64,000 bases of DNA from Escherichia coli. Lineage in GTDB: Bacteria; Pseudomonadota; Gammaproteobacteria; Enterobacterales; Enterobacteriaceae. The first letter of the stretch is position 1. Every line of letters begins with the position of its first letter. The notes beneath the pieces were generated by a model. It searched no databases. It saw only the letters and a list, made by a program, of their open reading frames with translations, and was not told the DNA's origin. The translations under genes and the position numbers were made by a program. The stretch is taken from the NCBI RefSeq assembly GCF_041248615.1, contig NZ_CP158426.1; one strand, 5' to 3'. Shown here piece by piece: positions 2,086-63,843 of the stretch.

Positions 2086-5000
2086 TTAATGGAAAATGAC
2101 GTCGGGTGCGCTTAACGCCTCACTCAAATCAAACACATCAAGTTCGGCAAAAGTGACGGATTTATTCTCACGGTATACATGAAGAGAACGGAAGCTCATT
2201 AGCGCTTTGCTATCAACATTGTAGTGGTTAAAACCGGATGAAAACTTAAGGACCAGCCGGTACTCGCCCAAGTCATAGACAAATGCGTTCTCATAGCCTG
2301 ACTCCCAGCCTTTGTATCGCAATCCCATAAGTTGCCCAACGGTAGCAGATTTACCTTCCCAGCGATTCAAACTATTACTGGCTGACTCGTCAGGCGTGAG
2401 CAGCACCGTGCGGCGCGACAATTGGCGAAAAGGCGACATAATTTCGTAATCGGCAAAAAGCTGTGCAAATTCACTGCGCATTTCTGCTGTCATTTCTAAC
2501 GGGTGGGCAATGCCAATCAGAGCATCGGCAGGCAGGTCAATTGGCTCATCTTGCTCATTGCAGAACTCCCCCTCAGCGGCCACACGAAAGGCGTTGAGTA
2601 AACAACGCGGTTCATTTGCCGGATAAACACCCCATATCAATCGCTGAGTAACCAGGCGGGTAAAGGGATGATTAATAAACAGAGAATGAAAATCTGCCAG
2701 CGACCAGCGTCGGGTGGTGCGCAGGGCAGTTTCAAGACGCGGGAGCAGGTTTTTGCTCACCTGAGTAGCATCTTTTTTTAGCCCTTTTAGTCGGGCCAGT
2801 GCCTCGGGTGCTTTCAGTTGATCGTCATCGGCGCGCAACCGGGGAACGCTTTTCTGGCGAACGTTTTGCTGATCAAAGATAACCGGGTTGAGGTTTTCAT
2901 CGAAGCGAACGGTAAATTGCCGTGGACCAAAATCAAAAATCAACGCCTGCGGATCATCAAGACCCAGTGTTGGGACTAATCTGTCCGCTAACTGTTCCTG
3001 GCTTAGCCCGCGATTTTCTGCGACCACCTGAAGAAATTCCGCCGCGTTATCACGTAAGGGGCGGGATTTCGCCCGTTGCGATATATGATGCAGCTGCATC
3101 AGCGCCATATCATTATTCATCAGGGTAAGGATGTTCAGGCCACTGACAGCACGGGCAGATTTGCCTTCTTGTGGCCAGGCGAGGATCTGTGTCGTTAGAT
3201 CCCGTGTCGTGCTTTCGTCACCAAAGAGACTTAACGCCAGAAATGCCCAGTTGTCTTTTGCGGGGGCACCAGCTTGTTGCCACGCAGTGAAGAGATCCCA
3301 GGCAAAAGCTGCCAGCGTTTGTGGCTGGCAGAACGTTTTCAGTTGTTCCAGCCCGCTATAAAAACGTCCGCCTTGGGTAAAGCGCAGCATTTCGCCGATA
3401 ATTTCCAGAGCGTCATCGGTAACAGGCTGATTATTTGTGATAAGGCGCGGCCTGGACCGCATTTGCGGCTGCCAGAAATCAGGGGCTTTTGGAATGCGTG
3501 TCGGGTAAATCTCTATTGGACTCTGTTTAAGTAATTGCTCCAGGGCAGGCCATACATCTGTACGCTGCCAGCGGTTTGCCACGGTTTGCAGTAACTCGCC
3601 ATGTCCCTGTTCGTAAAGTAAACGCAGGGCAAGTAATGCAGCTTCGCTATTATCGCTGGATTTGGTGAAGACAAGAGGGATAAGTGCAGTAGCTGTATGT
3701 TCCGGCCAATGTAAAATCCACTGGCGAGCCAGATCACGCTGCGCCGCGAAACGTCGCCAGACGCGGGCAACGGGCAGGGCCAGTTCTGTTGCGCCAAAAT
3801 TTAAAATTAACGGAAATGTTTCTTTTGGACGATGTGAAAAAGCCAACAGCAGACCTGGTAGAGCATCCAATCCGAAGATACTGAGAAAATAGTCCTCACC
3901 CGCAGACAGATGCTTTTTCTCATTGATACGTAGCCAGAAAGTCAAAGCCATCTCACGCGGCAACTGCGCCAATAAATACAGGTTCCAGATACTCTTTTCC
4001 CGACGATAGCGTGAGTAGCTGTCATTTTCCCATATGTTAATGAACACTTCTACGTGACCGTTGCGAAGCGCCTGTTCTGCTAATTGAGCTTCCGGGGAGC
4101 TCCAGCCATTCATGATCTCTTCAACCCGCCCTGGGTAGTAATGCCACTGAACAATGAGTGAATTGCGTGCAGCATCCAGTTTTCCGGGGAGTATATAATT
4201 CAAAAACAGCCATACATCATCTCCAAAACCCAGCTCCTGTAATACAACTCGTCCACTTTTTTGTTCCATGCGTTCCGCAAGAGATTCCGTGCTGAAATAA
4301 CGGGCAGACTCAGTGGCGGCAAGCCTCTCTTGTTCGCCTGGTTGCCAGTAAACTTGCGGGGTTAATTCGAGCGGTGCCAAATCAAGACGTGGAGCTGTCA
4401 TTTTTTTCTTACTACGCCACGGTGGTGAAACGAGGATTTCAGGCAGATTGCTGTTATCGGTGCCATCAATAACCGGTTTGGGCGGTGCCGATAAATAACT
4501 ATTCAGCACTGCCCGGGCTTGAGTACTTAACCACGGCATCACTTCTGCTGCCAGTTGTGGCTGCGATGCCATCAGCGTTTGTAACAGCGTACGCCAGTAT
4601 TCATCACGTGCTTTTTGCTGTGCAGGCAGCTTTTTGTCTTCGATGATTGGATAACCAGGGCGCGTAGGTGGTTCTTTTAGCGCCAGCAGTTCTGCCAGTG
4701 CGGCAAGCGTCGCATGGGGGAAATTTTTACTGTATTTAGCTACACGTTGCAGGCTGGGTTTGTTTTTATCAGCAACTAACAGCAGGGTGCGGATGACCTG
4801 CGGATGGTTAATTTGTACCAGCAGACTGCCGCAATCTTCTTTATGGGCATACATTGCCAGGCGTGGAACGGCTGCCAGTCCTTGTTCGCGCAAAAGGGCA
4901 GCGCAGGCCGCGTAGCCGAAGTGGTTTTCATGCGACATGTAGCTGGCTTCCCGATCGCTAAATATATCCTGGCTCCAGTAGCGTTCGAGTTTTCTCACCG

Positions 5001-9477: not shown

Positions 9478-9577
9478 TCTGCATCCCTGTAATTTTATCC
9501 AGTTGAATGCTGATGCTACCAGTATTTATGCGGGTTAGAGAGAGACAAAATCGCAAGAAAACAAATTTAGGAATTTA

Positions 9578-20519: not shown

Positions 20520-20599
20520 AACCAAACGACTCGGGGTGCCCTTCTGCGTGAAGGCTGAGAAATACCCGTATCACCTGATCTGGATAATGCCAGCGTAGG
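20520..20599 (+). repeat. attL: 80-bp direct repeat, a copy of the thiM TPP aptamer/thi-box lacking the 3' P1 strand and expression platform
   Basis: Base-for-base identical to 33185-33264. Flanking bases differ on both sides. Preceded by native rcnR-thiM intergenic sequence. Confidence 0.9.
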
Positions 20600-20684
20600 T
20601 TGCCAACATTCTGATTAGTATTCATGTGGTTACATTTCTTTTTGTCCGTGTGTAATGCACCTAATGTACAAAAAGAGCGTAAAC

Positions 20685-21986
20685 ATGAGGTACAAAACTC
20701 TTCCATACACGTTTCAAAGAAACGGTAATTACTATCTACAGATTCGGCTTTCGAATGGTCGGATGTATAAAAAATCACTTCTCACTGACAGCTATCGTGA
20801 AGTCTCTGCTTTGATGATTGGTGTTGCTCCGTACATTCCTTTTGTTAAATCATTAGCCATCACAATCCCGATGTTTGATGCCTTTGTTTCAAACCTGATT
20901 ATGTCAAAACTTAGGGCTGTAAAAGTTCCGCTGCTATCACATCAGTCGGTAATTACCCCTGCTACATTCGAGGAACCAGCGACACAAGCCGAACCGCAAA
21001 ACATGCTAACTCTTTCTGATGCGTGGGCTATGTATAAAGCGGAAAAGGGTAAAACATGGACAAAGTCGATCTCAAGGGCGAATGAGCGTTACATGGAAGT
21101 CTTGATGGTTGTCTTGGGAGAGACAACTGACGTAGTTGCGATTTCTAAGCAGGACATCAAGCAGGTGATGGAAGTTGTTGAGAATTTGCCTAAGCGTGTT
21201 GTCCAACCGTATCGCTCAATGAACATCCAGCAACTGATTGAATGTGATGATGTATCACCGAATGAGTTAGTAGGAGTGGAAGCCATTCATAAGCATCTCA
21301 AAATCTACAAATCGCTTTTCAAGACTTTTCTAACAGAAAACAAAGATATTTTGATTAAATCCCCAACTGATGGGGTAGTAGCAGCACCATCTAAAGCAAG
21401 GTTTGGAGCATACAGTTCGGCGGAGATGAAGAAGTTTGTAGAGTGGGCACTTAAGCAGCCAGATGGCTGGCAGAAGTGGATAACATTGTTGTTGGCATAC
21501 ACAGGAGCCAGAAGGGGAGAAATTGCCAAACTGGAAAAATCACAAATAAAATATGATGAGGATAGCCATCGGTATTATTTCCTGATTGCAGAAGGAGGGC
21601 AGGGGAAAACCGAAAATGCTACCCGACAAGTAGTGATACACCCTAAGTTGATCGAATGGGGTTTCATGGAATACGTTGATCGCCAGTGGAAAGAACGGAT
21701 TTTTTCAGAAGTGGCTGGTACAAACATGACGAAGATCGGTAAAGAATTTGCTGATGTGCGTGACCAGCTTGACATTCCGTACTTAGACGATTTTGGACAG
21801 CGGAGGCTTTTGCATAGCATTCGTCATTCTGTTTGCTCTACTGCGATGGCTGGATGGGTAAAGAACATCTTGCATCTGCAACAAACAGTAGGCCATGAGA
21901 AAAGTGGAGGGATCACTAAACGCTACTTACATACGTTCCCACTATCATCAATTTGTTATGTTATTGATGGGATTAGTTGGGTCTGA
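20685..21986 (+). CDS. int: Tyrosine site-specific integrase
   Basis: ORF 20655..21986, likely start MRYKT at 20685. Catalytic signature ARRGEIAKL (Arg), GKTENATR (Lys), HSIRHS (His-x-x-Arg), GHEKSGGITKRYLH (Tyr). Confidence 0.85.
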   Translation: MRYKTLPYTFQRNGNYYLQIRLSNGRMYKKSLLTDSYREVSALMIGVAPYIPFVKSLAITIPMFDAFVSNLIMSKLRAVKVPLLSHQSVITPATFEEPATQAEPQNMLTLSDAWAMYKAEKGKTWTKSISRANERYMEVLMVVLGETTDVVAISKQDIKQVMEVVENLPKRVVQPYRSMNIQQLIECDDVSPNELVGVEAIHKHLKIYKSLFKTFLTENKDILIKSPTDGVVAAPSKARFGAYSSAEMKKFVEWALKQPDGWQKWITLLLAYTGARRGEIAKLEKSQIKYDEDSHRYYFLIAEGGQGKTENATRQVVIHPKLIEWGFMEYVDRQWKERIFSEVAGTNMTKIGKEFADVRDQLDIPYLDDFGQRRLLHSIRHSVCSTAMAGWVKNILHLQQTVGHEKSGGITKRYLHTFPLSSICYVIDGISWV

Positions 21987-22203
21987 AACTGCTAAGAATG
22001 ATAGGAAAAGCTACTTAATGATCCTTAGTTTTGGATGAAATTGAAGATTACAAAGATCTTGAGCGAATAAGAGCGTTTTTTAATCAAAAAAGCCATAAAA
22101 ACTTTTCTTGACTGTATATTAACACAGTGCTTCTACTATGTAGAAGAAATCGACATGAAAAATTTGATATGGTAAATTTTATCCATGATAACAAAAAGGT
22201 ATT

Positions 22204-23106
22204 GTGGATATGTTACTACCAATACGAGTTCATAAACGATTTCTAACTTTATTTAAGACTTTGCAAATTGACGATTGCCCACCGCAATCAACTTTAAATA
22301 TTCATGTACTTAATATCGAAAGCAATGAATTTATATACTGTAAATTAGTTGAAGAATTACGTGACATAATAATTACTTATGTACATTCGAATAGAAGGCT
22401 TGAGGAGTTTAAGGAAAGTTATCCTTCGTATAGCCCTAAACCTTTTTTCGAAGCAATACAAAAATTTCGCAATTATACGTCAAACGAAGGTGAGTTAGGT
22501 GAACTGCTTTTATACGCTTTTCTTGAAACAGGACTAAATGCTCCGAAATTACTTTCCAAAATGCAATTGAAAACAGATTCTAATGATTACATTAAGGGTT
22601 CTGATGGTGTACATCTGTTAGAATTAGATGATGGTTATCAATTAATATTTGGAGAATCAAAGCTCTATGCCGATCTTTTAGAAGGTGCTCGAGAAGCGTT
22701 TGATTCTATTTTAGATTTTAAAAGTAATGGAATGGCATTTGAAAGAGGGCTGATAGATACACACGTTATAAATGAAATGGTTTCAGAAGAAGGTTATGAG
22801 AAAATAAAATCAATTCTTCTTCCTTCTTCTGGCGATGATGGGCCAGATCTTGATTTATCCTTTGGTATATTTCTTGGTTTTGAATTGAAAATAGATAGCT
22901 CACAGTTATCATTGAAAAACAAAGAGTTTAGAGATTGGGTTAATGAGTCCGTGAAACAACATGCTACTCGCGTGGTCAGTACGATACGAAGGAAAATTAT
23001 TAATCATAAATTATATGGTCACGAATTCCACATATATATAGTTCCTTTTACCGATATTGATGTTACACGAAAAAAATTAATTCATGAAATGCTAACAATT
23101 AAGTGA
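22204..23106 (+). CDS. hamA: HamA-like protein (DUF1837-type PD-(D/E)xK nuclease fold) of a Hachiman-type system
   Basis: 300 aa (GTG 22204 or ATG 22210). Motifs EGELGELLLYAFLE (~aa 95-108), GSDGVH (aa 132-137), GESK (aa 150-153). Overlaps the next gene by 4 nt. Confidence 0.7.
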   Translation: MDMLLPIRVHKRFLTLFKTLQIDDCPPQSTLNIHVLNIESNEFIYCKLVEELRDIIITYVHSNRRLEEFKESYPSYSPKPFFEAIQKFRNYTSNEGELGELLLYAFLETGLNAPKLLSKMQLKTDSNDYIKGSDGVHLLELDDGYQLIFGESKLYADLLEGAREAFDSILDFKSNGMAFERGLIDTHVINEMVSEEGYEKIKSILLPSSGDDGPDLDLSFGIFLGFELKIDSSQLSLKNKEFRDWVNESVKQHATRVVSTIRRKIINHKLYGHEFHIYIVPFTDIDVTRKKLIHEMLTIK

Positions 23107-25691
23107 ACACTATGAATGAATTAAATTCAAGTAAAAACATTCATTTGGCAGCTCGTCTTGCAGATGATGCTTTTGAAAGTGCTTATTTTAAAGAAATCAA
23201 TAAGTTTATAAGTGGTTTATACAATTACAGTTTATTTAACTGCGATTCAGATGTTAGTCTCTCCGAGAGTGATAACAATAAAATAGCACACGCTTTGCGT
23301 TTTGCAGATATATTTTCACATTCTTCAAAAGAAAATCATAGATCATGTGCATTTGAAATTATAAGTAGAATAGCCTTATTAAAAAAACATGATCCTTATT
23401 TTAAATTTATAGGTACTGCTGTTATTAATCGGCTTGGGGTTTATGCAGCAGAAAAACTCATATCAAAAGGGGTAAAATTACCCTTAGATAGAGAAGTTGA
23501 TTCTATTATTAAAAAATCAGTTCAGAAAACAGATGAAGATGGAGTATATTTCACTGATAAACAACATGAGTTATACAAACTTTTAAAAAGTAGCAAAACA
23601 ATTAGTTTTGCTGGTCCCACTTCGATGGGAAAGTCATTTGTTATTAATGCATACATTAAGGAAATAACTCTTAAAAAAGAGCTTAAAAATATAGCTTTAA
23701 TTGTTCCTACACGGGCTTTAATAAGCCAAAATGCACTTAAGTTAAAAATTGATATTGCATTGTATAAGAATGAAAGCCCTTATAAAGTTGTTACGACATC
23801 CTACATTATTAATGGTGATGAAAGTAAAAATAAAGGCTATATTTTTATTCTCACCCCAGAAAGGCTGGTTAGTCTCATAAGCACTATTCCTGGACTAATG
23901 ATTGATTATGTTTTTGTAGATGAAGCTCAAAAGTTAACAACAAAAAATGATTCGAGGAGTCTTGTTACTTATTCAGCTATAGAGCAAACAATTAGTAAAA
24001 ATCCTGAGGCAAGATTATTCTTCTCTTCACCTAATTTATCTAATCCTGAAATATTTAATATTTTGTTTGATAGAAAAGACGCTTCGGTATATAGAAATAC
24101 AGAAGGTGCAACTACTCAGAATATGTATTTTATTGATCTTTTAAATAGCAGCTTTAGCTATGTTAATACCGAGAAAAGGACGCTTGAAAAAATAGATGAG
24201 ATCTCTAATACTTACACGAATACAAATGATGTTATCTATAAATTAAATAATGGTAAAAGTAAAATAATTTATTGTGGGGGGATAGAAAGCACGCTTGAGA
24301 GAACACGTAGCTTTATCAATTATCTCAAAATTAATAAGAAAAAAAGAAAGCATTTAAATTTAGAAATATCTTCTGAGATAAGAAACTTTGTTCATGATAA
24401 CTATGAACTTGCAGAAGCCATCAACTATGGTGTTGCTTTCCACTTTGGAAACTTGCCTCAATCGATTCGAGATTTAATTGAGCATCATTTCAAAATAGGA
24501 AATATTGACTATCTATTCTGTACATCAACCCTACTTGAGGGAGTCAATTTACCTGCAAGATCCGTATTTATTCTTACGCATAAAAAAGGCCCCAGTCCAT
24601 TAGAGTCGGTTGATTTTTGGAATCTGGCTGGGAGAGCTGGGCGATTATCTATGGAATTGTCAGGGGATATTTTTTGTATTAGGGATGATAATAAGCTTTG
24701 GAATAAAAAAGCTGTTGATAATATCCTTCTGTCTGACAAAAATAACATTTCATTAAAGCCAAGCTTCTATATTGAAGACGAAAAAAGATTGAACGATTTA
24801 CACCATATAATTACGACTGGTAAAACAGGGAATATTAAAAATGCTGAGTTCCTTAGAACTTTAGGAGATATGATAAGAATAGACACTCTGAGGGATTCTA
24901 AAGAACTTCCTCTTATTAGTTATTTCCAAAGCAGTGGAAAATCAGAAATTTTGTTAAGTGCAGAAAAAAGCACTGAAAATATTACCATGCCAATGAATAT
25001 CCTTTTGGCAAATAGTCATATTGCGATTGATTCGCAGTATCATGCTTTTAAAAAAATAAAAAGCCTTACAGTTAAGGAACTGAAATTATCATGGCAGCCT
25101 ACATACGAAGAAATTAAAGAAAAATTGAATTTGATATTCGATATTTACCAAGTTGAAAAGTTTGCAACAGGTAGAGAACGTCTTTATTTAAATTCAATTC
25201 CATATTATGCAGTATTACTGTTTCAATGGATTCGTGGAAATAGTCTACAGGAAATTATCTCGGGGGCAATTGCTTATAGAAAGAACAAAAGTATATATAT
25301 TAAAAATACACCTGTTCTTTTTGACAGCGAAAACCCAGCTCATTTAACTGCATTAGTTAATGAAACTATAAAAGACATTGAGTTGCGTGTAGGTTACCAG
25401 TTACAAAATTATTTTTCACATTACTGTCAGCTTCTGAATTATGTGTTACAAGGAAATCCAGGGGCAAACTGGTCTCAGTTCATTGAGTTTGGCTCTAATG
25501 AGCCAATAGTATGGCACCTACAAATGATGGGCTTTTCAAGGGATAGTGCAGTTTTTCTCAAGAAGAATTTTTCAAAACATCTTAAACTTGATAATGAAAT
25601 GAATAAACTCATCATAATGGATAAGGAACTGATCAAGCGTTCTTTCAAAAAAGATGGACTACATTACTTAGAAATCCAATCGTTATTATAA
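23103..25691 (+). CDS. hamB: HamB-like SF2 helicase of a Hachiman-type system
   Basis: 862 aa (GTG 23103 overlapping the hamA TGA, or ATG 23112). Walker A GPTSMGKS (nt 23613-23636), motif II DEAQ (nt 23919-23930), motif VI-like AGRAGR. Confidence 0.75.
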   Translation: MNTMNELNSSKNIHLAARLADDAFESAYFKEINKFISGLYNYSLFNCDSDVSLSESDNNKIAHALRFADIFSHSSKENHRSCAFEIISRIALLKKHDPYFKFIGTAVINRLGVYAAEKLISKGVKLPLDREVDSIIKKSVQKTDEDGVYFTDKQHELYKLLKSSKTISFAGPTSMGKSFVINAYIKEITLKKELKNIALIVPTRALISQNALKLKIDIALYKNESPYKVVTTSYIINGDESKNKGYIFILTPERLVSLISTIPGLMIDYVFVDEAQKLTTKNDSRSLVTYSAIEQTISKNPEARLFFSSPNLSNPEIFNILFDRKDASVYRNTEGATTQNMYFIDLLNSSFSYVNTEKRTLEKIDEISNTYTNTNDVIYKLNNGKSKIIYCGGIESTLERTRSFINYLKINKKKRKHLNLEISSEIRNFVHDNYELAEAINYGVAFHFGNLPQSIRDLIEHHFKIGNIDYLFCTSTLLEGVNLPARSVFILTHKKGPSPLESVDFWNLAGRAGRLSMELSGDIFCIRDDNKLWNKKAVDNILLSDKNNISLKPSFYIEDEKRLNDLHHIITTGKTGNIKNAEFLRTLGDMIRIDTLRDSKELPLISYFQSSGKSEILLSAEKSTENITMPMNILLANSHIAIDSQYHAFKKIKSLTVKELKLSWQPTYEEIKEKLNLIFDIYQVEKFATGRERLYLNSIPYYAVLLFQWIRGNSLQEIISGAIAYRKNKSIYIKNTPVLFDSENPAHLTALVNETIKDIELRVGYQLQNYFSHYCQLLNYVLQGNPGANWSQFIEFGSNEPIVWHLQMMGFSRDSAVFLKKNFSKHLKLDNEMNKLIIMDKELIKRSFKKDGLHYLEIQSLL

Positions 25692-25771
25692 AACTGCCGA
25701 ATCAGAGTCTTTTATTGATTCTGATTCGCACTTATATAGTTAAATCAAAAGGAGCATTAAAATTTTTCAGT

Positions 25772-25795
25772 AGCGATTTAGTATGCTAAATCGCT
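25772..25795. terminator. Strong hairpin between the convergent hamB and recombinase genes
   Basis: 10-bp perfect stem AGCGATTTAG/CTAAATCGCT with a TATG loop. There is no clean U tract, so its function as a terminator is uncertain. Confidence 0.35.
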
Positions 25796-25999
25796 GCATA
25801 ACGAATCTGCTTCTAAATCTTGATTAAGTGTTTCGAACTGCCTTGATTGTTTATTGCTACACTTTATAATTAATCGCAACACACAAAACAATACAATGTA
25901 GGCAGTTGCACAGAATTAATTACAGGCACATTATGGATATCGAGAGGATTCGAACAGTTTTAAACTGCAAGCCCTTTGACTTTATCCCCTCCTACTATA

Positions 26000-26575
26000 T
26001 CAGCGTTTGATGCCGCTAATACTGGCAAGCATTTCTTTCTTCACACGAAAAACTGTAGCCCTGCCGCAATCACATAACTTTGCTATCTCGTCTGGTGTAT
26101 TCTTCCCGGCCTGTAACATATCGATAATCTTGTTATGTAGCTCTTTGTTCTTTTGCTTGCCCTTGTACTTCTTAGCCTCTTTAGCAAGAGCAATCCCCTC
26201 ATTGCGACGAGATGCGATCATACCCCGCTCAAATTCTGCAGCGGCTCCCATCATGGTTAGGATAAGGCGTGATTGTGGGGAATTATCAAAACTCATAGAG
26301 TTTGCAAGGAATTGAACAGTGATTCCACGAGCCACGAGGTTATCAATCATTTCCAGCAAATCGCGGGTATTACGTGCAAGGCGATCAATCGAGTGAGTAA
26401 CGAGCGTGTCACCTTCGCGGAGGTGTGAAAGCAGGTTCAACAATTCAGGTCTTTCGCTGGTGGACTTACCTGATTCTTTCTCTGCCACAATTTTGTCACA
26501 AACAGGTTCCAGCACTGCCAACTGACGCTCAAGATTTTGATCCTTTGTTGAGACTCTCGCGTAACCAAAAATCAT
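26000..26575 (-). CDS. Serine recombinase (resolvase/invertase family)
   Basis: 191 aa. N-terminal MIFGYARVSTKDQNLERQ (catalytic Ser) and a C-terminal HTH (TPDEIAKLCDCGRATVFRV). Confidence 0.88.
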   Translation of the reverse strand: MIFGYARVSTKDQNLERQLAVLEPVCDKIVAEKESGKSTSERPELLNLLSHLREGDTLVTHSIDRLARNTRDLLEMIDNLVARGITVQFLANSMSFDNSPQSRLILTMMGAAAEFERGMIASRRNEGIALAKEAKKYKGKQKNKELHNKIIDMLQAGKNTPDEIAKLCDCGRATVFRVKKEMLASISGIKR

Positions 26576-26600
26576 TTTCCTGCCCTCACTTACGTGAAAA

Positions 26601-26664
26601 GTATCATTTGAATTTACTTAATGATACAGTATCATTTAAATGCATTCAACATCTAAATGATACT
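26601..26664. promoter_or_regulatory. res-like recombinase binding sites upstream of the serine recombinase gene
   Basis: Inverted GTATCATT (26601-08)/AATGATAC (26620-27) and AGTATCATTTAAAT (26628-41)/ATCTAAATGATACT (26651-64). That is four copies of one half-site. Confidence 0.55.
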
Positions 26665-27082
26665 AAACGAGACGAGAAAAGCGAGTATCGTTAGGGAGTA
26701 CCCAAAAGAGATTTTTGATCGTGCGTTTTTTAGTCAATGTAGGGTTAGTGAAAAGTTCAGTACCGAGATCTGAGTTCACGGCATTTTGTCGACGGGGTTG
26801 AACCTGATTAGGCGAACGAGATTTTAAATCAGGCGGAATAAAACAAGTTGTACTTTTATCTGAGTAAAAGATCCCTTTAACTTTTTAGTCAGAAATCGTG
26901 ATACTAGGGGTTTGGTTATTTTGTGTCCTTAAGGCCAGTACTTTTAGCGAGGACGAAAAAACGGCCTACATGAGAACGCTTACAGTAACTTAAGTATATT
27001 ATCCAAAAAGTCACTTAACTTAAATCAATTTGGATGCAAAATCGCCACACTTTGCAAGTGAACACATACCGGGCAACAAGCA

Positions 27083-27109
27083 AATAAAAAAGGCCACTTT
27101 CGCGACCTT
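27083..27109 (-). terminator. Intrinsic terminator of the membrane/periplasmic two-gene operon
   Basis: Minus strand AAGGUCGCGAAAGUGGCCUU followed by UUUUAUUU, 17 nt after the stop at 27126. Confidence 0.7.
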
Positions 27110-27125
27110 GTACCAGTACAAACAC

Positions 27126-27485
27126 TCATTCAGAACGATCAAGTACCATATATGCTGGCTGACACATGCTGCCCCGCTCCTGTAGCCAGTAGTAATCAAG
27201 ATCGGCAACACGCACGTCCAATCCAGAATCTACACGGTTGATCTGTAACCGTAGCCCTACAGTATCCTTGTACGATAAACCAGATTTAACATTGTATTTG
27301 TACTTAACACCGTTTTCCTGTTCAAACTGTTTAAGGAAAGGCGTCATTTGTTTCTGAATTTCTTTCAAACAAATAACCTCATTATCAATAGCAAAGGGGG
27401 GTTCTGTTTTTCCATCAGGTACAGCAGCCTGTAAATGAAAGGAAGTACTCAACAATAACAGCATTGCAACAGAAGTCTTTTTCAT
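27126..27485 (-). CDS. Small exported protein of unknown function
   Basis: 119 aa. Sec signal peptide MKKTSVAMLLLLSTSFHLQA|AVP. Lies 43 nt downstream of the preceding gene on the same strand. Confidence 0.7.
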   Translation of the reverse strand: MKKTSVAMLLLLSTSFHLQAAVPDGKTEPPFAIDNEVICLKEIQKQMTPFLKQFEQENGVKYKYNVKSGLSYKDTVGLRLQINRVDSGLDVRVADLDYYWLQERGSMCQPAYMVLDRSE

Positions 27486-27528
27486 TTTAATTCCTTATTA
27501 AAGAACAGTACATTATATTTCAATGGAC

Positions 27529-28569
27529 TTAATAACAATATTTTATATTTCCTTCGGGTTTTCTCATGCATTTAATTCCTTCAGGAATATAATCAGTTAC
27601 GGGAGCAGGTCTGGCATCAGGTCTTGAAAGACGATTGGATATAGAAGACAACAGACTGAAAACACACTCATTAAATGATTTTTGATATTTATTTTTTTCA
27701 TAAAAGTACTGCATGGTGATTTTATCTCTTTCGTATTGCAATTCTTTGCCAAGCTGAATCCTATCCATATCAATTCCATTTCTCATAGCATTAAATCTTT
27801 CGTTCAATAAATTAAATTGAGATTTATTCCATTCATTTAAAGGAAATAAAGAATTGTTAAGCCTTTGCCTACAATTAGATTGCTCGATAGCTGACATGTA
27901 TTCTTTCATACTAACGCCAATATCTAAGTATGTGAGTTGTCCAGCAGTTCTATCAACTGAGTTATTAGGGTAAGATTTAATTTCAGTAAGTATTGACTCT
28001 GTTAATACTGCATTTTCTTCTAAATCTTTGCTAATAGTTATTTGAGCTTGTTCTCTTTTATCCTTATCAAATATTGAAATGTATTTCTTTACTATATCCT
28101 GATTAGCTTTCTCGGCTGCTACTAACGCATCTTGAACCTTCTTTTCCGCCGCTTTAACTCGTTGTTCTTCTACAAATTTCGCGTAGTCATCAGTATTTGT
28201 AATGTGATTTTCACGAGCGATAGAAAACTCTTTACTATCTTTAAAACCAAGTTTTTGTGCTCTGGCTCCATCGCTTGAAGATCGGGCAGAACTTGCCACG
28301 AAAGCGAGCACAATGATCAGTACAGGAACCGTATAATTATTAACGAGTTTATAGGGTAAGAACTTCGCTTTAAGCGTACCATAACCCAAAACAGCCCAGC
28401 CTATCGCGGCAGTACTTGCCAGTAGCTGGCACAATCCAGCGACGGAAAGCATGATTACCGACCAGAAGCCTGTACCGACTGCGAAAAGATCACCAAATTT
28501 CTCCATTGACGCAAGGAATAAAAACACTCCCCAAATGCCATAAAATCCTATTTTCAAATATTTACTCAC
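27529..28569 (-). CDS. Inner-membrane protein (about 3 N-terminal TM helices plus ~240-aa soluble/coiled-coil-like domain), unknown function
   Basis: 346 aa, GTG start with AAAGGA upstream. Hydrophobic segments IGFYGIWGVFLFLASM, FWSVIMLSVAGLCQLLASTAAIGWAVLGYG and VPVLIIVLAFVASSA. Confidence 0.7.
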   Translation of the reverse strand: MSKYLKIGFYGIWGVFLFLASMEKFGDLFAVGTGFWSVIMLSVAGLCQLLASTAAIGWAVLGYGTLKAKFLPYKLVNNYTVPVLIIVLAFVASSARSSSDGARAQKLGFKDSKEFSIARENHITNTDDYAKFVEEQRVKAAEKKVQDALVAAEKANQDIVKKYISIFDKDKREQAQITISKDLEENAVLTESILTEIKSYPNNSVDRTAGQLTYLDIGVSMKEYMSAIEQSNCRQRLNNSLFPLNEWNKSQFNLLNERFNAMRNGIDMDRIQLGKELQYERDKITMQYFYEKNKYQKSFNECVFSLLSSISNRLSRPDARPAPVTDYIPEGIKCMRKPEGNIKYCY

Positions 28570-28789
28570 CGCAATTATCCTTTAATAATTTTCCAAATCG
28601 ATGGTTCGTTCTATTTGTATTATCGACAATAATTCGTTTGCCTTTAGGTAGATCCCTTAAAAAGGAATCCCCCCAAAATTTATAGATTAGCAGTTGTACC
28701 ACTCTCACTGTTTTGTCACTCCCATTATCTTCTCTCAGGTCAAAAGTACGGACTTAAAGCCGTCCGTGTTCAGGTGCTCAAGAGTAGCA

Positions 28790-28900
28790 CGCATATCAAT
28801 AAATGATCGATAAAAACGATCAATTAATGGCTTATTGATCGCTATAACCTATCAATGACTATTAATTCAATACAAATCAATAGGTAAAATCGATCAAGAG
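28790..28900. repeat. Iteron-like cluster of (G)ATCAAT/GATCGA motifs with several GATC sites
   Basis: ATCAAT at 28795, 28851 and 28876; CGATCAAT at 28817; TTGATCG at 28835; GATCGA at 28805; CGATCAAG at 28891. All lie within an ORF-free tract. Confidence 0.45.
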
Positions 28901-29552
28901 GATTCGTCATCCATGAAAGGGGTTATGTATCTGATTTCAATACAGGGAGTATTAGCGATACCATCACGCAAACGCTCTTAAAGCGTAGCTACGGCGTTTT
29001 GTAGGGTTTTTGGTCATTCATGTGTGTCAGTAATGAACATCGCATTCAGGGGCTTCCTGTGCGTTTTGTCCGAAACACCATCATGAAGGGGGACAGATCG
29101 GATCGGGGTCGCTTCGCTCTGGTCAGTACTGGATAGTTCTTTTCCAGTAACTGAAACCGCAGATACCCCACTAAGTACACAAAGGAATTATTTGTAGAAT
29201 AAGTAATGAAATAACAGTCAGTTATGTACTTACTGACAGAACTAAAAACGCGATTAGGTTCGCTCTGTCAGTGACCGAAGGGAACGCAACAGTAGAATCT
29301 AATCCAGCGAACAGTACACGCAAGCGGGTGCTGTTTAATTGTTTTATCTATGTAAACAATGGGATAGCTATCAAGTACTCACTGCGTGAGCACTCTCACT
29401 AACTACCCGAAACAGTTCGCTTGCTTCGCCGCTCCTACTTTCAGGTAGTTAATTCGCTTTCGCTCGTTGTGATGTCCGAAATTTATTACCTATAGTATTA
29501 TAAGGTATTATTTTCCGGACATTTATGTATTTTTATGATGGTGTTCTGGACA

Positions 29553-31028
29553 TCATTTTTTGCTTTTTTGTACTTCCTTTTCGTATTTGTTCCACATAGC
29601 CTTTTGCTCTTCGGGACTGAGTGCTGTATTACCACTGGCAAGAAACACCTTGAACGCTTCTAACTCAAGCCCTGGGTTGCGGCTTTTCCAGCGGCGAAAA
29701 CGCTTAGCGTGATTATCATCAAGAGTGAAACGCTTTTGCTTATTCTTTGAACCTTGCGGCCTGCCTCTCGACCTCTGCTCATCATCAATACCGATATCTA
29801 TATACTCAATATTATCTGTAAGAGATCTGGCTTGCCATTCATCAAAAACATAAACAGTCTGTGTTTCAGTACTGTCAAAATCCCTTGAAATTCCTCGTAG
29901 TACGAACTGGTGTAAACTTTCGTACTCCCTCGCAACATGTATCGCCTCGCCGTCAATCTCAAAGAACAATTCGCACTGTTTAGCCTCTGTTTCAGAGGGA
30001 CGCATACAAGCGAGCCAGACGCACGTGAGCAAGTGTTGGTACTGGTTAAACCCTCTGGCATCCGGGCTTATCTCTGTGCCGTTTTTGAGGCTCTGAGAAT
30101 CGCTTTTGTTCTTCGTCCAGTAGAAATCCTGTCCCTCAAGTTTTTTATCAATAAATGAGTATATTTTTTGTACTTTATCAGGGTTATTAGTCTTCCATGT
30201 CTTCGATAGTTTTTGATTTTTTGAGAAGTAATAAACCTTTAATCTGTCTTTGAGAGCTGTTTTTCGTGTCAGTAATCCTCCAAGTTCAGTACTTTCAAAG
30301 AGTTCTTTATTGCCTTTATAGATCAATGAATTTTCGAAATTAGCTCCGAGAAAGGTGATTGATACGTCTTTGTACTTACTGAGATCTTTCCATGCGGTAA
30401 TATTAAGCTGTTCCTTTTTCGCATCGGTAAAGTACTCATTATTCATGATGAACATATCATTTTCGTTAATTGCTGGTAGCTGGTTCAAAATATTCTTCAG
30501 TACTTCCCCTTGTATTTCTGGTTTTCTTTCTGCCGCAATATACATATTTTTATCATCTAATGTCAGTACATTGTGTATTAATGAATTAAGAATTGTATTT
30601 TTTATATTAGTATCACCCTCATTAATATTCTGAAAAGAGTGAAAATTAGTAACGTCGTCAATATAAATATTACAGTCAGATAACAATTCAGGAGGAATTT
30701 TGAAAAACGTTTTATCTGTTATGAGTAATGTTTTATTACTTCCAGATGAAAGAAAGTTAATAACTGAATTAATAACACTTTCATCTTTTGGTACTGTATC
30801 TGTAATTATATACTCGCAATTATTGATTTGCTTTGCTGTCTGCTTAATAAGTTCTTGAGTGTTCTGTACTAAAATATATTTTTCAGTACTGTTATTGATT
30901 ATATTGCATATAGCAGTAGTTTTACCTGAACCACAAGGGGCGGAGACATACTTAAATTTATTATAAATAGGTGTGGGATTAATCATTTGTACACGCTCCA
31001 TATTGATTAATGTAGAAAGGTCAGCCAT
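29553..31028 (-). CDS. SF2-helicase-like P-loop NTPase with a C-terminal AT-hook/basic tail
   Basis: 491 aa. Walker A APCGSGKTT, Walker B-like NIYIDDV, motif VI-like HQFVLRGISR, and an AT-hook core SRGRPQGSKNK near the C-terminus. Confidence 0.7.
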   Translation of the reverse strand: MADLSTLINMERVQMINPTPIYNKFKYVSAPCGSGKTTAICNIINNSTEKYILVQNTQELIKQTAKQINNCEYIITDTVPKDESVINSVINFLSSGSNKTLLITDKTFFKIPPELLSDCNIYIDDVTNFHSFQNINEGDTNIKNTILNSLIHNVLTLDDKNMYIAAERKPEIQGEVLKNILNQLPAINENDMFIMNNEYFTDAKKEQLNITAWKDLSKYKDVSITFLGANFENSLIYKGNKELFESTELGGLLTRKTALKDRLKVYYFSKNQKLSKTWKTNNPDKVQKIYSFIDKKLEGQDFYWTKNKSDSQSLKNGTEISPDARGFNQYQHLLTCVWLACMRPSETEAKQCELFFEIDGEAIHVAREYESLHQFVLRGISRDFDSTETQTVYVFDEWQARSLTDNIEYIDIGIDDEQRSRGRPQGSKNKQKRFTLDDNHAKRFRRWKSRNPGLELEAFKVFLASGNTALSPEEQKAMWNKYEKEVQKSKK

Positions 31029-31370
31029 TCCAGTGTCTGGCCTTTCGTTGTTTTAGTTATTAGTCTTTTTGAGTTGCGACAACTGCAAGAGAATGTTTAT
31101 AAACAAGTGAAATAAGCAGTTTTACCGCCTCAAAAGCTACAGTCAGTTTCGTAATTATTTTCGAAAGCATCGTAAATTTCACTTCGCTATCTTCTATGCA
31201 AAAATTAGCAGCCTGAGGTATTTAATGATTGAGATGTGGCCTGTTGATAAGAGGGTTTGTATTGCTTGTTCTGCTCTTTGTTAATTTGTGACTTATTCCT
31301 TTCACAATGATCGGCTATGTTTGATAACTCTGTTAGGAAATCACCTATGGCTACCATATTGGATTTGCCC

Positions 31371-32276
31371 CTATATTTCCAGACACCTGTTATCACTTAA
31401 CCCATTACTGGCCTGCTGCCGCAGATATTCCCGTGGCGAGCGATAACCCAGTGCACTATGCGGATGCCATTCGTTATAATGCTCGAACGCCTCTGCAAGG
31501 TTCTTTGCTGCCGTTAACCCGTCTGGTTTAGGCATGATACTGATGTAGTCACGCTTTATCGTTTTCACGAAGCTCTCTGCTATGCCGTTACTCTCCGGAC
31601 TCCGCACCGCCGTGTTCTTCGGTTCAAGCCCCAATATCCGGGCAAACTGCCGTGTTTCATTAGCCCGGTAGCATGAACCATTATCCGTCAGCCACTCTAC
31701 TGGAGACGCCGGAAGCTCGTTGCCGAAGCGGCGTTCCACCGCTCCCAGCATGACGTCCTGTACTGTTTCACTGTCGAAGCCGCCCGTAGTGACTGCCCAG
31801 TGCAGTGCCTCACGGTCACAGCAGTCCAGCGCGAACGTGACTCGCAGTTTTTCTCCGTTATCACAGCGGAACTCGAACCCGTCAGAGCACCATCGTTGAT
31901 TGCTTTCTTTCACGGCCACTTTGCCAGTATGTGCCCGTTTCGATGGCGGTACAGCGGTTTTTCGCTCAAGCAACAGCGCATTCTGGCGCATGATCCGGTA
32001 AACACGTTTGGCATTGATCGCAGGCGTACCATCAAGTTCGGCCTGTCTGCGAAGCAGCGCCCATACCCGACGATAACCATACGTGGGCAGCTCTCCGATA
32101 ACATGGTGTATACGGAGAAGCACATCCGTATCATCTGAGTGACGGCTGCGGCGACCATCTTTCCAGTCATCGGTTCGTCTGAGAATTACGTGCAACTGCG
32201 CACGCGACACCCGGAGACAACGGCTGACTAAGCTTACTCCCCATCCCCGGGCAATAAGGGCGCGTGCGCTATCCAC
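31371..32276 (-). CDS. insD: IS2 transposase OrfB (InsD, DDE domain)
   Basis: 301-aa ORF overlapping orfA in the -1 frame, as in IS3-family elements. Confidence 0.92.
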
Positions 32277-32599
32277 TTTTTTGCACGCCCGTATTCAACG
32301 GCTTCTTTAAGGAGTTCATTTTCCATCGTTTTTTTGCCGAGCAGGCGCTGGAGTTCTTTAATCTGCTTCATGGCAGCAGCAAGTTCAGAGGCAGGAACGA
32401 CCTGCTCTCCTGCGGCCACAGCAGTAAGACTTCCCTCCTGGTATTGCTTGCGCCAGAGAAATAACTGGCTGGCTGCCACACCGTGTTGCCGGGCAACAAG
32501 GGAGACCTTCATTCCCGGTTCAAAACTCTGCTGAACAATAGCGATCTTTTCCTGTGTAGTACGCCGTCTGCGTTTCTCCGGTCCTAAGACATCAATCAT
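32234..32599 (-). CDS. insC: IS2 OrfA (InsC, HTH)
   Basis: Start at [22 protein letters not shown] (ATG 32599), 121 aa. Confidence 0.9.
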
Positions 32600-33184
32600 C
32601 TGCTCTCCAATGACTAGTCTAAAAACTAGTATTAAGACTATCACTTATTTAAGTGATATTGGTTGTCTGGAGATTCATGGGGCCAGTCTACATATAATCA
32701 TGTTCATCTTCTAATTCTTTAAATTTTAATAGAGAAATCTCTTCATAATATTCTTTCATTTTCATATAAATCACCTTTTATTTTTTTGTTGTTAACACAG
32801 GTTTTTTTCTGCACTACACATTATAGCACATAGAATTAATTCGTTTCATTTTCTGTCAATGAAATAGAGTAAAGATAAATGCTTTTATAAAGCACTTATC
32901 ACATCCGTTGCCTTGCTATATATAAAAAGTTCTCCAAACTATACTGGTGTATATTTTCCCCATCAGATACAGTTGTTTTTAAACATTACAATGTTGGATT
33001 CTTGGTTCCAAATAAATCGAGCAACTATTAGTGTTTCAAAATGAAGTTGGGAGCTATTCCTTAATTCGTATGAGGTACAAAATGGGGTACTCGGTGGGGT
33101 ACAGCGTGTATAAGTGACGTCACCACGGGTAAACTTGCATCGGCGAGCAACTTAACCTAAGCTGACAAAAATTAAGAGAAATGT

Positions 33185-33264
33185 AACCAAACGACTCGGG
33201 GTGCCCTTCTGCGTGAAGGCTGAGAAATACCCGTATCACCTGATCTGGATAATGCCAGCGTAGG
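33185..33264 (+). repeat. attR: 80-bp direct repeat (thi-box aptamer copy contiguous with the native thiM expression platform)
   Basis: Identical to 20520-20599. Confidence 0.9.
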
Positions 33265-33317
33265 GAAGTCACGGACCACCAGGTCATTGCTTCTTCACGT
33301 TATGGCAGGAGCAAACT
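33185..33317 (+). promoter_or_regulatory. thiM TPP riboswitch (aptamer plus SD-sequestering expression platform)
   Basis: Contains the thi-box CTGAGAAATACCCGTATCACCTGATCTGGATAATGCCAGCGTAGGGAAGTC. GGCAGGAGCAAACT then precedes the ATG of thiM. Confidence 0.88.
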
Positions 33318-49453: not shown

Positions 49454-49540
49454 AAAAAATAAGCCCGTGTAAGGGAGATTACACAGGCTAAGGAGGTGGT
49501 TCCTGGTACAGCTAGCATTTTATGGGTTATGTTTTTCAGC
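49454..49540 (-). ncRNA. cyaR: CyaR (RyeE) Hfq-dependent sRNA
   Basis: The complement reads GCTGAAAAACATAACCCATAAAATGCTAGCTGTACCAGGAACCACCTCCTTAGCCTGTGTAATCTCCCTTACACGGGCTTATTTTTT. This matches my recollection of CyaR, including the terminator. Confidence 0.88.
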
Positions 49541-49574
49541 GAAACGGATGATAACCTTAATAAATGCAGCTGTA

Positions 49575-62859: not shown

Positions 62860-62999
62860 ACGGGAAAGCCCCTCCCGAGGAAGGGGCCTTAAATAAGGAA
62901 AGGGTCATGATGAAGCTACTCATCATCGTGGTGCTCTTAGTGATTAGCTACCCAGCATACTAAGACTACCAGGGCGGGGGAAACCCCGCTCTACCCTCA
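62860..62999 (-). ncRNA. sibB: Sib antitoxin sRNA, unit 1 (ends approximate)
   Basis: Minus-strand promoter TTGACA (63034-29), 17 nt, TACTTT (63011-06). Terminator GCCCCUUCCUCGGGAGGGGC plus a U-rich tail. Fully antisense to ibs. Confidence 0.65.
62907..62963 (+). CDS. ibsB: Type I toxin Ibs (18 aa, MMKLLIIVVLLVISYPAY)
   Basis: ATGATG start with AAGGAAAGGG upstream and a TAA stop. Matches the IbsB sequence as I remember it. Confidence 0.8.
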   Translation: MMKLLIIVVLLVISYPAY

Positions 63000-63187
63000 C
63001 TCCTGAAAGTATGCCTTCACGATAAGATTGTCAATCTGCAGGCTTTGCAGTCTGCGATCCTGCCAGCAAATATTCTTTGCGAGACGTTACGCAATAATCA
63101 CACTGGAAACTATTTTATCCGCAAGTCAGCGATAGACTGCATACAGGGCGAAAGGAGGTAAGCCGACGATTTCAGCGGGACGCTGAA

Positions 63188-63327
63188 ACGGGAAAGCCCC
63201 TCCCGAGGAAGGGGCCTTAAATAAGGAAAGGGTCATGATGAAGATACTCATCATCGTGGTGCTCTTAGTGATTAGCTACCCAGCATACTAAGACTACCAG
63301 GGCGGGGGAAACCCCGCTCTACCCTCA
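63188..63327 (-). ncRNA. Sib antitoxin sRNA, unit 2 (ends approximate)
   Basis: Same promoter and terminator elements as unit 1, shifted by 328 bp. Confidence 0.6.
63235..63291 (+). CDS. ibsB: Type I toxin Ibs (18 aa, MMKILIIVVLLVISYPAY)
   Basis: Second repeat unit. Differs from unit 1 by a single L4I change. Confidence 0.78.
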   Translation: MMKILIIVVLLVISYPAY

Positions 63328-63515
63328 CTCCTGAAAGTATGCCTTCACGATAAGATTGTCAATCCGCAGGCTTTGCAGTCTGCGATCCTGCCAGCAAATA
63401 TTCTTTGCGAGTCGTTACGCAATAATCACAGAGGAAACTATTTTGGTCACGCGTTAGCGATAGACTGCATTCAGGGCGAAAGGAGGTAAGCCGACGATTT
63501 CAGCGGGACGCTGAA

Positions 63516-63662
63516 ACGGGAAACCCTCTCCCGGAGAAGAGGGCTTTTAATAAGGAAAGGGTTATGATGAAGCACGTCATCATACTGGAGATACTCTTAG
63601 TGATTAGCTTCCAGGCTTACTAAGAACACCAGGGGGAGGGAGAAACCTCTCCCTAACCCTCA
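63516..63662 (-). ncRNA. sibA: Sib antitoxin sRNA, unit 3 (ends approximate)
   Basis: Promoter TTGACA (63697-92), 17 nt, TAATTT (63674-69). Terminator CCCUCUUCUCCGGGAGAGGG plus a U-rich tail. Confidence 0.6.
63564..63623 (+). CDS. ibsA: Type I toxin IbsA-like (19 aa, MMKHVIILEILLVISFQAY)
   Basis: Third repeat unit. Carries a Glu codon GAG at 63588-90 within the hydrophobic core. Confidence 0.7.
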   Translation: MMKHVIILEILLVISFQAY

Positions 63663-63843
63663 CTCCTGAAATTATGTCACTCCGCCCTTAGTGTCAATCG
63701 ACGGCTCTCCGTTCTTGCGAGGCGAATAGCAAAATTTTCTGCGCCGCCGGGCCTAATTCTGAAAGTTTCTTCGTTTGCTCTTATTTCATTATTGCAATCG
63801 GTATGATACCGGGCCTCAATAATTCTCTAAGAAAGGATTTCTT

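Follow-up and report, generated by a model that had tools for sequence, protein, structure and literature searches.

An intact type I Hachiman operon with a predicted LexA operator on an island inserted in the thiM riboswitch of Escherichia coli

An intact two-gene Hachiman system

We found that a 64,000-nucleotide stretch of Escherichia coli DNA (contig NZ_CP158426.1 of RefSeq assembly GCF_041248615.1, hereafter the window; island features lie on its plus strand unless stated otherwise) carries two adjacent genes, hamA (22204–23106) and hamB (23112–25691), which form an intact two-gene Hachiman anti-phage system, type I in PADLOC and subtype I-A in the scheme of Cui et al. 2025, an assignment that we regard as virtually certain. 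Taken as a whole, the observations are very likely best explained by an intact I-A Hachiman operon that works by the mechanism of its homologs, is headed by a predicted LexA (SOS) operator and travels as swappable cargo of an integrative island inserted in the thiamine pyrophosphate (TPP) riboswitch of thiM. Hachiman as such is ordinary here, since PADLOC or DefenseFinder would call the locus and RefSeq already labels HamA (the product names are 'HamA C-terminal domain-containing protein' and 'DEAD/DEAH box helicase'). An earlier note on this DNA, made from the sequence alone, had proposed the Hachiman architecture; it mentions neither the SOS operator predicted here nor that the island targets a riboswitch.

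The family of HamA, which had been assigned from motifs and gene sizes, was borne out by profile hidden Markov model searches, in which HamA matches Pfam PF08878 over positions 2–230 of 230 (E = 1.2e-62; 212 bits, cutoff 25) and the PADLOC HamA1 profile PDLC00156 over positions 1–297 of 298 (E = 2.4e-120). The PADLOC profile spans HamA residues 3–297 and no further Pfam domain is found, hence there is no N-terminal effector domain; a search of NCBIfam gave no HamA model match. Because DUF1837 domains are sometimes catalytically dead scaffolds (PMC11914072), we checked the integrity of the active site. The three motifs quoted in the earlier note, EGELGELLLYAFLE (95–108), GSDGVH (132–137) and GESK (150–153), are in place in the numbering from the GTG start. 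In the numbering from ATG, which we use below unless stated, E95, E98, D132, E149 and K151, of which D132, E149 and K151 are the catalytic residues, are invariant in an alignment of 48 homologs that reaches down to 39% identity. These five map one-to-one onto the essential residues D90, E93, D127, E147 and K149 of the Streptococcus thermophilus HamA (PMC13064477), with identical spacings of 3 and 34 residues. The residues E151/K153 of HamA and K177 of HamB, singled out in the earlier note in GTG numbering, correspond to E149/K151 and K174.

Upon examining the fold by Foldseek, we observed that the three PDB entries most similar to an AlphaFold model of HamA (pLDDT 88, pTM 0.89) are the solved HamA chains 8ZUE_A, 8VX9_A and 8VXY_A (probability 1.00, TM 0.48–0.57), with FokI-type nucleases ranking after them. 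Together with the invariance of the catalytic residues in the homologs, this upholds the assignment of the protein to the PD-(D/E)xK nucleases. When a profile of the 48 HamA sequences was run against the PDB sequences, the only significant match was 9WH1_A, and the HamA of ECOR31 (8VX9) was not reached at E <= 1, so that the link between HamA and the ECOR31 protein is made by fold.

HamB is an SF2 helicase of the Ski2/Hel308-like kind, and matches the PADLOC HamB1 profile PDLC00176 over positions 2–845 of 845 (E = 8.3e-296) as well as the Pfam families DEAD, Helicase_C and ResIII, with sub-threshold Hel308 matches only in NCBIfam. Among the PDB sequences, 9WH1_B matches over its full length, followed by 8ZUE_B and then by Ski2, Hel308 and Pol-theta helicases. 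The helicase motifs GPTSMGKS (171–178), DEAQ (273–276) and AGRAGR (509–514; all in GTG numbering) lie where they had been placed, with the Walker A motif GPTSMGKS at 168–175 and DEAQ at 270–273 in ATG numbering. All 68 cognate HamB open reading frames (ORFs) that were compared keep motifs I, Ia, Ib, II, III, V and VI invariant; DEAQ is the rarer of two naturally occurring versions of motif II (Q in 19 of 68, H in the other 49). The full-length PADLOC matches of both genes and the fold of HamA thus confirm the Hachiman identity, and every feature of type I and subtype I-A that can be tested computationally was found.

Both ORFs were recovered as they had been described, at 22204–23106 (300 aa from GTG) and 23103–25691 (862 aa from GTG), and their strong AT richness was likewise confirmed (GC content of 32% in hamA and 31% in hamB vs 50–52% in the flanking chromosome). 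The GTGA at 23103–23106, from which an overlap of the two genes had been read, is physically there, but its GTG is not conserved, with Serratia reading GGATAAATTTTATG. We rejected GTG 23103 as the start of hamB and prefer ATG 23112, which is invariant across five loci, is also the start given by PGAP, and yields a protein of 859 aa. The two genes are therefore 5 nt apart on the same strand, stop to start, with no overlap; this layout is conserved, and tight translational coupling is plausible despite the gap. The start of hamA is ambiguous between GTG 22204 (300 aa; ATG there in Serratia) and ATG 22210 (298 aa; PGAP), a difference of two residues. Across the fetched loci that were scanned, a HamB ORF follows hamA in 67 homolog loci. 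The gene after hamB in the window is a convergent serine recombinase, and there is no HamC of the type II systems. Two strong hairpins right after the hamB stop (25686–25797; ViennaRNA fold of −36.6 kcal/mol, no U-tract) offer weak evidence of a possible transcript end.

Relation to characterised Hachiman systems

Judged by its sequence, this is a system of known kind with a catalytically intact HamA in a subfamily remote from that of the characterised ECOR31 protein, and it appears to have no close relative among the tested Hachiman systems. The HamAB of ECOR31 (PDB 8VX9/8VXA/8VXC/8VXY; Tuck et al. 2024, PMC12278908) is alike in its two-gene hamA-hamB operon, in a DUF1837 PD-(D/E)xK HamA with a D...ExK site (E138/K140 there, E149/K151 here), in a HamB that is an SF2 Ski2-like helicase, and in the HamA fold (Foldseek probability 1.00, TM 0.51–0.57). 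It differs in that sequence similarity between the HamA proteins is undetectable even with the 48-sequence profile, in the length of HamA (~259 aa there vs 298 aa here), in the position of the motif II aspartate of HamB (D431 vs D270), and in that a link to SOS or LexA is unreported, the term 'SOS' having a count of 0 in PMC12278908.

The subtype I-A system of DEC14B (Cui et al. 2025, PMC11914072) likewise has a HamA that consists of DUF1837 only, with an intact (D/E)xK site. Its E150 and K152, the equivalents of E149 and K151 here, are needed for function, as E150A/K152A loses both defence and nuclease activity, and it cuts DNA non-specifically and solely as the HamAB complex (PMC11914072). 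Compared by motif positions only, the Walker A motif of its HamB lies at 272–274 (GKT) vs 173–175 (GKS) here, and because of this difference we place the DEC14B HamB in a different lineage. The differing motif positions also mean that the N-terminal regions of HamB in ECOR31 and DEC14B are much longer than here.

The closest solved HamB is that of the trypsin-HamAB-MBL system (PDB 9WH1/9WHK/9WHU; bioRxiv 10.1101/2025.09.03.673762), which matches over residues 20–860 (E = 3e-120), and its DUF1837 aligns with HamA of the window as well (E = 5e-30, profile). Its HamA differs in having 528 aa with an N-terminal extension and a DUF1837 without catalytic residues (GFHGAH vs GSDGVH and IHSAAF vs IFGESK here), so that H, A and F stand at the D, E and K positions of the alignment, and its trypsin-MBL effector module is absent here. 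The HamB of the window is thus closest to a protease-linked variant, yet its partner nuclease is intact, which makes the system a comparison point for the disputed activation mechanism. Finally, AbpAB/YfjLK of E. coli K-12 (type I-B; PDB 8ZUE; PMC10732053, PMC11914072) is also a pair of a DUF1837 protein and an SF2 helicase on an integrated element, and it provides the top fold match to HamA (8ZUE_A) and a sequence match to HamB (8ZUE_B, E = 4e-23), whereas in AbpA a Cap4 nuclease stands at the N-terminus and the DUF1837 has lost its catalytic function.

A predicted LexA operator in the hamAB promoter

Next, we examined the region upstream of hamA and observed a predicted LexA operator, GACTGTATATTAACACAGTG, of the form CTGT-N8-ACAG, at 22110–22129. 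Sites were scored by a heterology index (HI) with a matrix built from 31 classic SOS boxes of E. coli, reportedly those of the lists of Lewis 1994 and Fernandez de Henestrosa 2000 and not drawn from a database, and with this matrix the known operators score HI 1.4–12.2 when each is left out in turn. The site upstream of hamA has HI 5.8, the best of the window, and none of 300 island shuffles reached this value. The runner-up and sole other strong LexA site of the window (CCCTGTAATTTTATCCAGTT, 9485–9504, HI 6.2) is the reverse complement of the known molR SOS box, ahead of a DUF4132 (molR/yehH-like) gene, and serves as an internal positive control, though the molR box is inside the training set of the matrix. 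In 774 kb of other fetched DNA used as a control, the only sites with HI <= 7 were four further copies of the molR box.

The predicted operator is shared by the orthologous promoters. Across ten hamAB promoters, which stand in at least six unrelated upstream contexts, it scores HI 3.8–6.6 and is each time the best site of its locus; ACTGT and ACAGT are invariant in all ten, and the 8-nt spacer between them occurs in four variants. It overlaps the −35 hexamer and spacer of a putative promoter, P1, which consists of TTGACT (22108–22113), invariant in the ten promoters, a spacer of 18 nt, and a −10 hexamer TCTACT (22132–22137) that is TATACT or TATAAT in most orthologs and was assigned by consensus reasoning only. 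The block CTTGACTGTATATTAAcACAGT, which holds this −35 hexamer and the CTGT-N8-ACAG core (22112–22127), is kept in 10/10 promoters, and homology between unrelated islands begins exactly at the −35. Downstream, a scan matched a second promoter-like block (TCGACA, 17 nt and the extended −10 TGgTAAATT; 22150–22178) that is near-invariant in the ten promoters and is a possible LexA-independent basal promoter, P2. In support of the specificity of the site, the HI scan found no LexA box in four sibling islands that hold other cargo, nor upstream of abpAB in K-12 (best HI 17.3). A second weak LexA-like site (CAATGAATTTATATACTGTA, 22323–22342, HI 11.8; 10.8 for its Pectobacterium equivalent) lies inside hamA, 213 nt past the main box, and probably reflects mere conservation of the coding sequence.

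Upon extending the search to other LexA types, we observed that the intergenic region ahead of hamA holds GAACAAATGTTC, the core of the LexA box of Gram-positive bacteria, in three relatives from the clostridia, namely C. asparagiforme, a Lachnospiraceae bacterium and a Blautia (3789–3800 in locus L053, 3756–3767 in L058 and 3776–3787 in L060). The core stands 146–167 nt upstream of hamA, abuts promoter-like hexamers within diverged flanks, and is the sole such motif in each 8.8-kb locus. The alpha-proteobacterial type (GTTC-N7-GTTC) had no match upstream of hamA in any locus. A match to CTGT-N8-ACAG in a locus from Bacteroidota (L063), the one such, was dismissed, as this is not known to be the motif of Bacteroidota LexA.

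On these sequence grounds, we consider it moderately likely that LexA functionally controls hamAB. Several points weigh against this. The matrix rests on sequences that were not drawn from a database, and a search for a published SOS-box table to ground it gave HI values and no sequences. The E. coli −10 hexamer TCTACT is weak, and the invariant downstream promoter-like block could make LexA control partial. The gamma-type box was not found upstream of hamA in Pseudomonas, Alteromonadaceae, Gynuella and Neptunomonas (<=47% identity), and the Gram-positive box occurs in 3 of ~7 lineages of one clostridial subclade only. The ten enterobacterial promoters share ancestry, so that promoter conservation alone is weak evidence. 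AbpAB of K-12 is activated by DNA-damaging agents and needs neither LexA nor RecA for its activation by mitomycin C (PMC10732053), though this concerns activation of the protein and not transcription. In the literature that we searched, no Hachiman operon was linked to a LexA box.

A genuine Hachiman operon whose LexA-like site is non-regulatory, being kept by promoter ancestry or bound by another factor while the downstream block drives most of the transcription, is an alternative that we treat as possible though rather doubtful. In its favour, the ten enterobacterial promoters stem from one module, further blocks of which vary just as little, the more distant gamma-proteobacterial relatives lack the box, and in a published survey the expression of defence systems overall was negatively correlated with recA transcription (bioRxiv 10.64898/2025.12.14.694197). 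Against it, the HI of 3.8–6.6 equals that of the recA and lexA operators with no chance occurrence in the 774 kb of control DNA, the half-sites have stayed invariant while the spacer between them drifts, the site overlaps the −35, and the clostridial relatives show the box type of Gram-positive LexA.

The earlier note had instead flagged as a possible operator the perfect palindrome CTTCTAC-TAT-GTAGAAG, which we located at 22130–22146, directly downstream of the conserved block and overlapping the P1 −10 and start region. Placed where it is, across the −10 and start, so regular a 7-3-7 palindrome might be bound by an unknown dimeric regulator, and Cronobacter retains it through the paired change CTTATAC-TAT-GTATAAG. 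Yet the window holds eight perfect 7-3-7 palindromes, and 115 with spacers of 0–10, so that the flagged one is not above chance. Among the ten orthologous promoters, none but those of E. coli and Cronobacter retain it whole, and it is broken in Pectobacterium, Erwinia and two further loci (L095, L097) and shifted in the Serratia-type promoters, and no regulator gene travels with the promoter-hamAB module. With its chance-level frequency and lack of conservation, the palindrome is very improbable as an operator and we rejected it, the adjacent LexA box being the better candidate.

Proposed mechanism and its regulation

The mechanism shown for the ECOR31, DEC14B and S. thermophilus systems likely transfers to the operon of the window. 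By this analogy, HamA and HamB would form a heterodimer in which HamB surveys intact double-stranded DNA and holds HamA silent. Upon engaging aberrant DNA, such as 3' single-stranded DNA (ssDNA) ends and, in the course of phage infection, damage or replication intermediates, ATP-driven activity of HamB would license indiscriminate DNA degradation by HamA, whereby the infected cell would die and the infection be aborted (PMC12278908, PMC11914072, PMC13064477). Two points count against this transfer: it is made by fold and motif only, because the ECOR31 HamA is undetectable by sequence, and the published models disagree, with HamA acting either after its release or activation by HamB (PMC12278908) or only within HamAB (PMC11914072, PMC13064477).

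How a system that senses DNA damage and destroys DNA is restrained, and how it interfaces with DNA repair, is left open in PMC12278908, and the predicted LexA operator bears on the question of restraint. In undamaged cells, LexA bound to the predicted high-affinity operator over the distal promoter would probably keep hamAB transcription low and thereby lessen autoimmunity, and the downstream promoter-like block may supply basal expression. A build-up of ssDNA would then lead to RecA-mediated cleavage of LexA, and transcription of hamAB is predicted to rise. Colicin operons, tisB, symE, hokE and dinQ are LexA-repressed E. coli genes whose products harm their own cell. The predicted arrangement resembles theirs in placing a CTGT-N8-ACAG operator across the promoter of a self-harming gene, and differs in that they encode toxins or bacteriocins, not nuclease-helicase immune sensors, and in that LexA binding is here predicted. 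In the Pez-Ham system of S. thermophilus (type III-B; PMC13064477), whose essential HamA residues correspond to the invariant ones here, the repressor is the co-encoded toxin-antitoxin PezAT, whereas the candidate here is the global LexA of the host; by analogy, repression by PezAT is a precedent for transcriptional damping of Hachiman to balance its fitness cost.

A broader reading, in which Hachiman is wired to the SOS response so that aberrant DNA and ssDNA would first raise the amount of HamAB and then trigger it enzymatically (a two-tier checkpoint of genome integrity), and which takes in the clostridial boxes and the family of islands attached at the riboswitch, seems to us evenly poised. 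If true, SOS coupling would be a repeatedly selected answer to the autoimmunity problem of Hachiman.

Repair genes dominate LexA regulons, and HamB is Hel308/Ski2-like in its NCBIfam and PDB matches to Hel308 and the Pol theta helicase, so one might see in the operon an SOS-induced helicase-nuclease module of the mobile element that serves DNA repair or maintenance, analogous to Hel308/HelQ-type repair helicases, and not primarily an anti-phage system. This is highly unlikely, as the operon is a full-length member of families whose tested members all give phage defence by abortive DNA degradation, the same slot is filled in sibling islands by an AAA ATPase pair, a TIR-domain protein or an ImmA-type module, and its distribution is patchy and horizontally transferred, as described below.

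Distribution of the lineage

We observed that the operon is rare in E. coli, being present in 8 of 5,426 complete genomes, and that these eight copies are 99.8–100% identical to one another; NZ_LT599825.1 (E. coli isolate NRZ14408) is 100% identical to the window. In E. coli A37 (NZ_CP029327.1, 3097473–3101239), one of the eight, hamB is annotated in two parts, 'DEAD/DEAH box helicase' and 'helicase-related protein', which suggests a frameshift.

When partitioning the HamA homologs by host, we found 98% identity in Cronobacter, 95% in Pectobacterium, 82% in Erwinia and 74–77% in Serratia, and about 47% or less in Pseudomonas, the archaeon Methanococcoides, Leptospira, Bacteroidota and Firmicutes. 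The lineage is spread by horizontal transfer. It is absent from the phage and plasmid collections searched, where the best identities were 31% and 37%. The promoter, hamA and hamB (22098–25691) move as one unit between unrelated islands. Cronobacter carries the same island with hamAB, and Serratia-type contigs hold the same promoter-hamAB module in a different island, beside arsC and a large serine recombinase. In Pectobacterium carotovorum (locus L008, 8772–13935) the island is decayed, with a 5'-truncated integrase and the backbone after hamB deleted, but hamAB and its LexA-box promoter have stayed whole, directly next to the thiM riboswitch. Since the Pectobacterium island decayed while hamAB was kept intact, selection for the cargo once the element could no longer move is suggested.

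It is scarcely credible that the operon is a decaying, non-functional remnant on its island, as might be read from the split hamB of A37 and the decay around hamAB in Pectobacterium, given that the ORFs are intact with all catalytic and helicase motifs preserved, that the eight E. coli copies are so nearly identical, and that hamAB outlasted the decay in Pectobacterium.

An island in the thiM riboswitch

The intact Hachiman operon lies in an island of 12.7 kb (20520–33264) that is inserted in the aptamer of the thiM TPP riboswitch. The earlier note had spoken of an integrase-bounded island, and we found its ends to be perfect direct repeats of 80 bp, the 5' part of the aptamer, at 20520–20599 (attL core) and 33185–33264 (attR core). 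The attR copy is within an intact thiM TPP riboswitch (33187–33283; 71 bits in Rfam), and the Rfam TPP match at attL (20522–20617; 58 bits) is hybrid, part native and part island in sequence. The empty site of K-12 equals the left flank of attL, the core and the right flank of attR joined together. With this empty site, its flanking direct repeats and the tyrosine recombinase that it encodes at one end, the element has the features of a site-specific integrative island. The tyrosine integrase gene follows attL (20655–21986, PGAP start 20685; Pfam Phage_integrase E = 3e-7, phrog_1 integrase E = 1e-25), and directly after it comes the cargo cassette of hamAB and its promoter (21989–25760). Homology to a sibling island (L002) ends at 21988 and resumes at 25761, and the segment exchanged relative to TB06052 is exactly 21989–25760.

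Integrases of 75–84% nucleotide identity were found in 10–11 further complete E. coli genomes. All four of the sibling islands that were inspected lie at the same thiM site, with differing cargo directly after the integrase: an AAA ATPase and a hypothetical protein in TB06052, an 871-aa TIR-domain protein in ETEC1732, ImmA/IrrE and a 'beta family' protein in EC21Z-063, and an element with a capsid gene in TC24. The last (L005, 15606–28625) encodes numerous small hypothetical proteins besides its 'major capsid protein', which suggests that at least part of this integrase family consists of elements resembling phage satellites. The islands of Cronobacter and Pectobacterium are likewise at the thiM riboswitch. 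In the literature searched, neither a thiM-riboswitch attachment site nor an rcnR/thiM defence hotspot was described. With their interchangeable cargo, the thiM-riboswitch islands are a compact natural place to seek new defence genes.

A gene for a small serine recombinase of the resolvase/invertase kind (26000–26575, minus strand; Pfam Resolvase E = 2.5e-36, phrog_125 DNA invertase) stands right after the cargo slot. It belongs to the island backbone and is also present in sibling islands with other cargo. A small serine recombinase lies 0.3–2.4 kb downstream of hamAB in almost all enterobacterial loci, unrelated islands included, and it may participate in cargo exchange; counting sibling islands, such a gene was noted in the window and in L002–L004, L006, L010, L092, L093 and L095.

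Integration separates thiMD from its native promoter. The native thiM promoter and the hybrid TPP aptamer, which is above the Rfam threshold, then precede the start codon of the integrase (ATG at 20655 or 20685) by 38–68 nt, with a spacing to the PGAP start of 68–69 nt in all five islands. Expression of the integrase might thus be thiamine-responsive, and the islands raise the question of whether their integrase is under thiamine control. Repeats of GAGGTACAAAA or GGGGTAC(A) occur at both ends (~20686–20696 and 33070–33105), with one copy inside attL and three before attR, and look like arm-type binding sites of the integrase. The right-end 115 bp are 87–88% conserved among the sibling islands.

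Other features of the island and the window

Beyond the serine recombinase, the island encodes on its minus strand a 119-aa secreted protein (27126–27485) and a 346-aa membrane protein (27529–28569), both without family matches, and a 491-aa protein (29553–31028) with a P-loop/ResIII N-terminus that matches phrog_2467 (unknown function) and has a homolog beside attR in EC21Z-063. PADLOC gave no significant match for these three ORFs or for the integrase. An IS3-family insertion lies near the right end of the island (31371–32644, minus strand). Elsewhere in the window, Rfam matches three SIB antitoxin RNAs in tandem, from type I toxin-antitoxin loci of the ibs/sib kind, the small RNA CyaR and an OrzO-P antitoxin RNA (62892–63697, 49457–49542 and 1258–1331), which are ordinary E. 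coli chromosomal RNAs unrelated to the operon.

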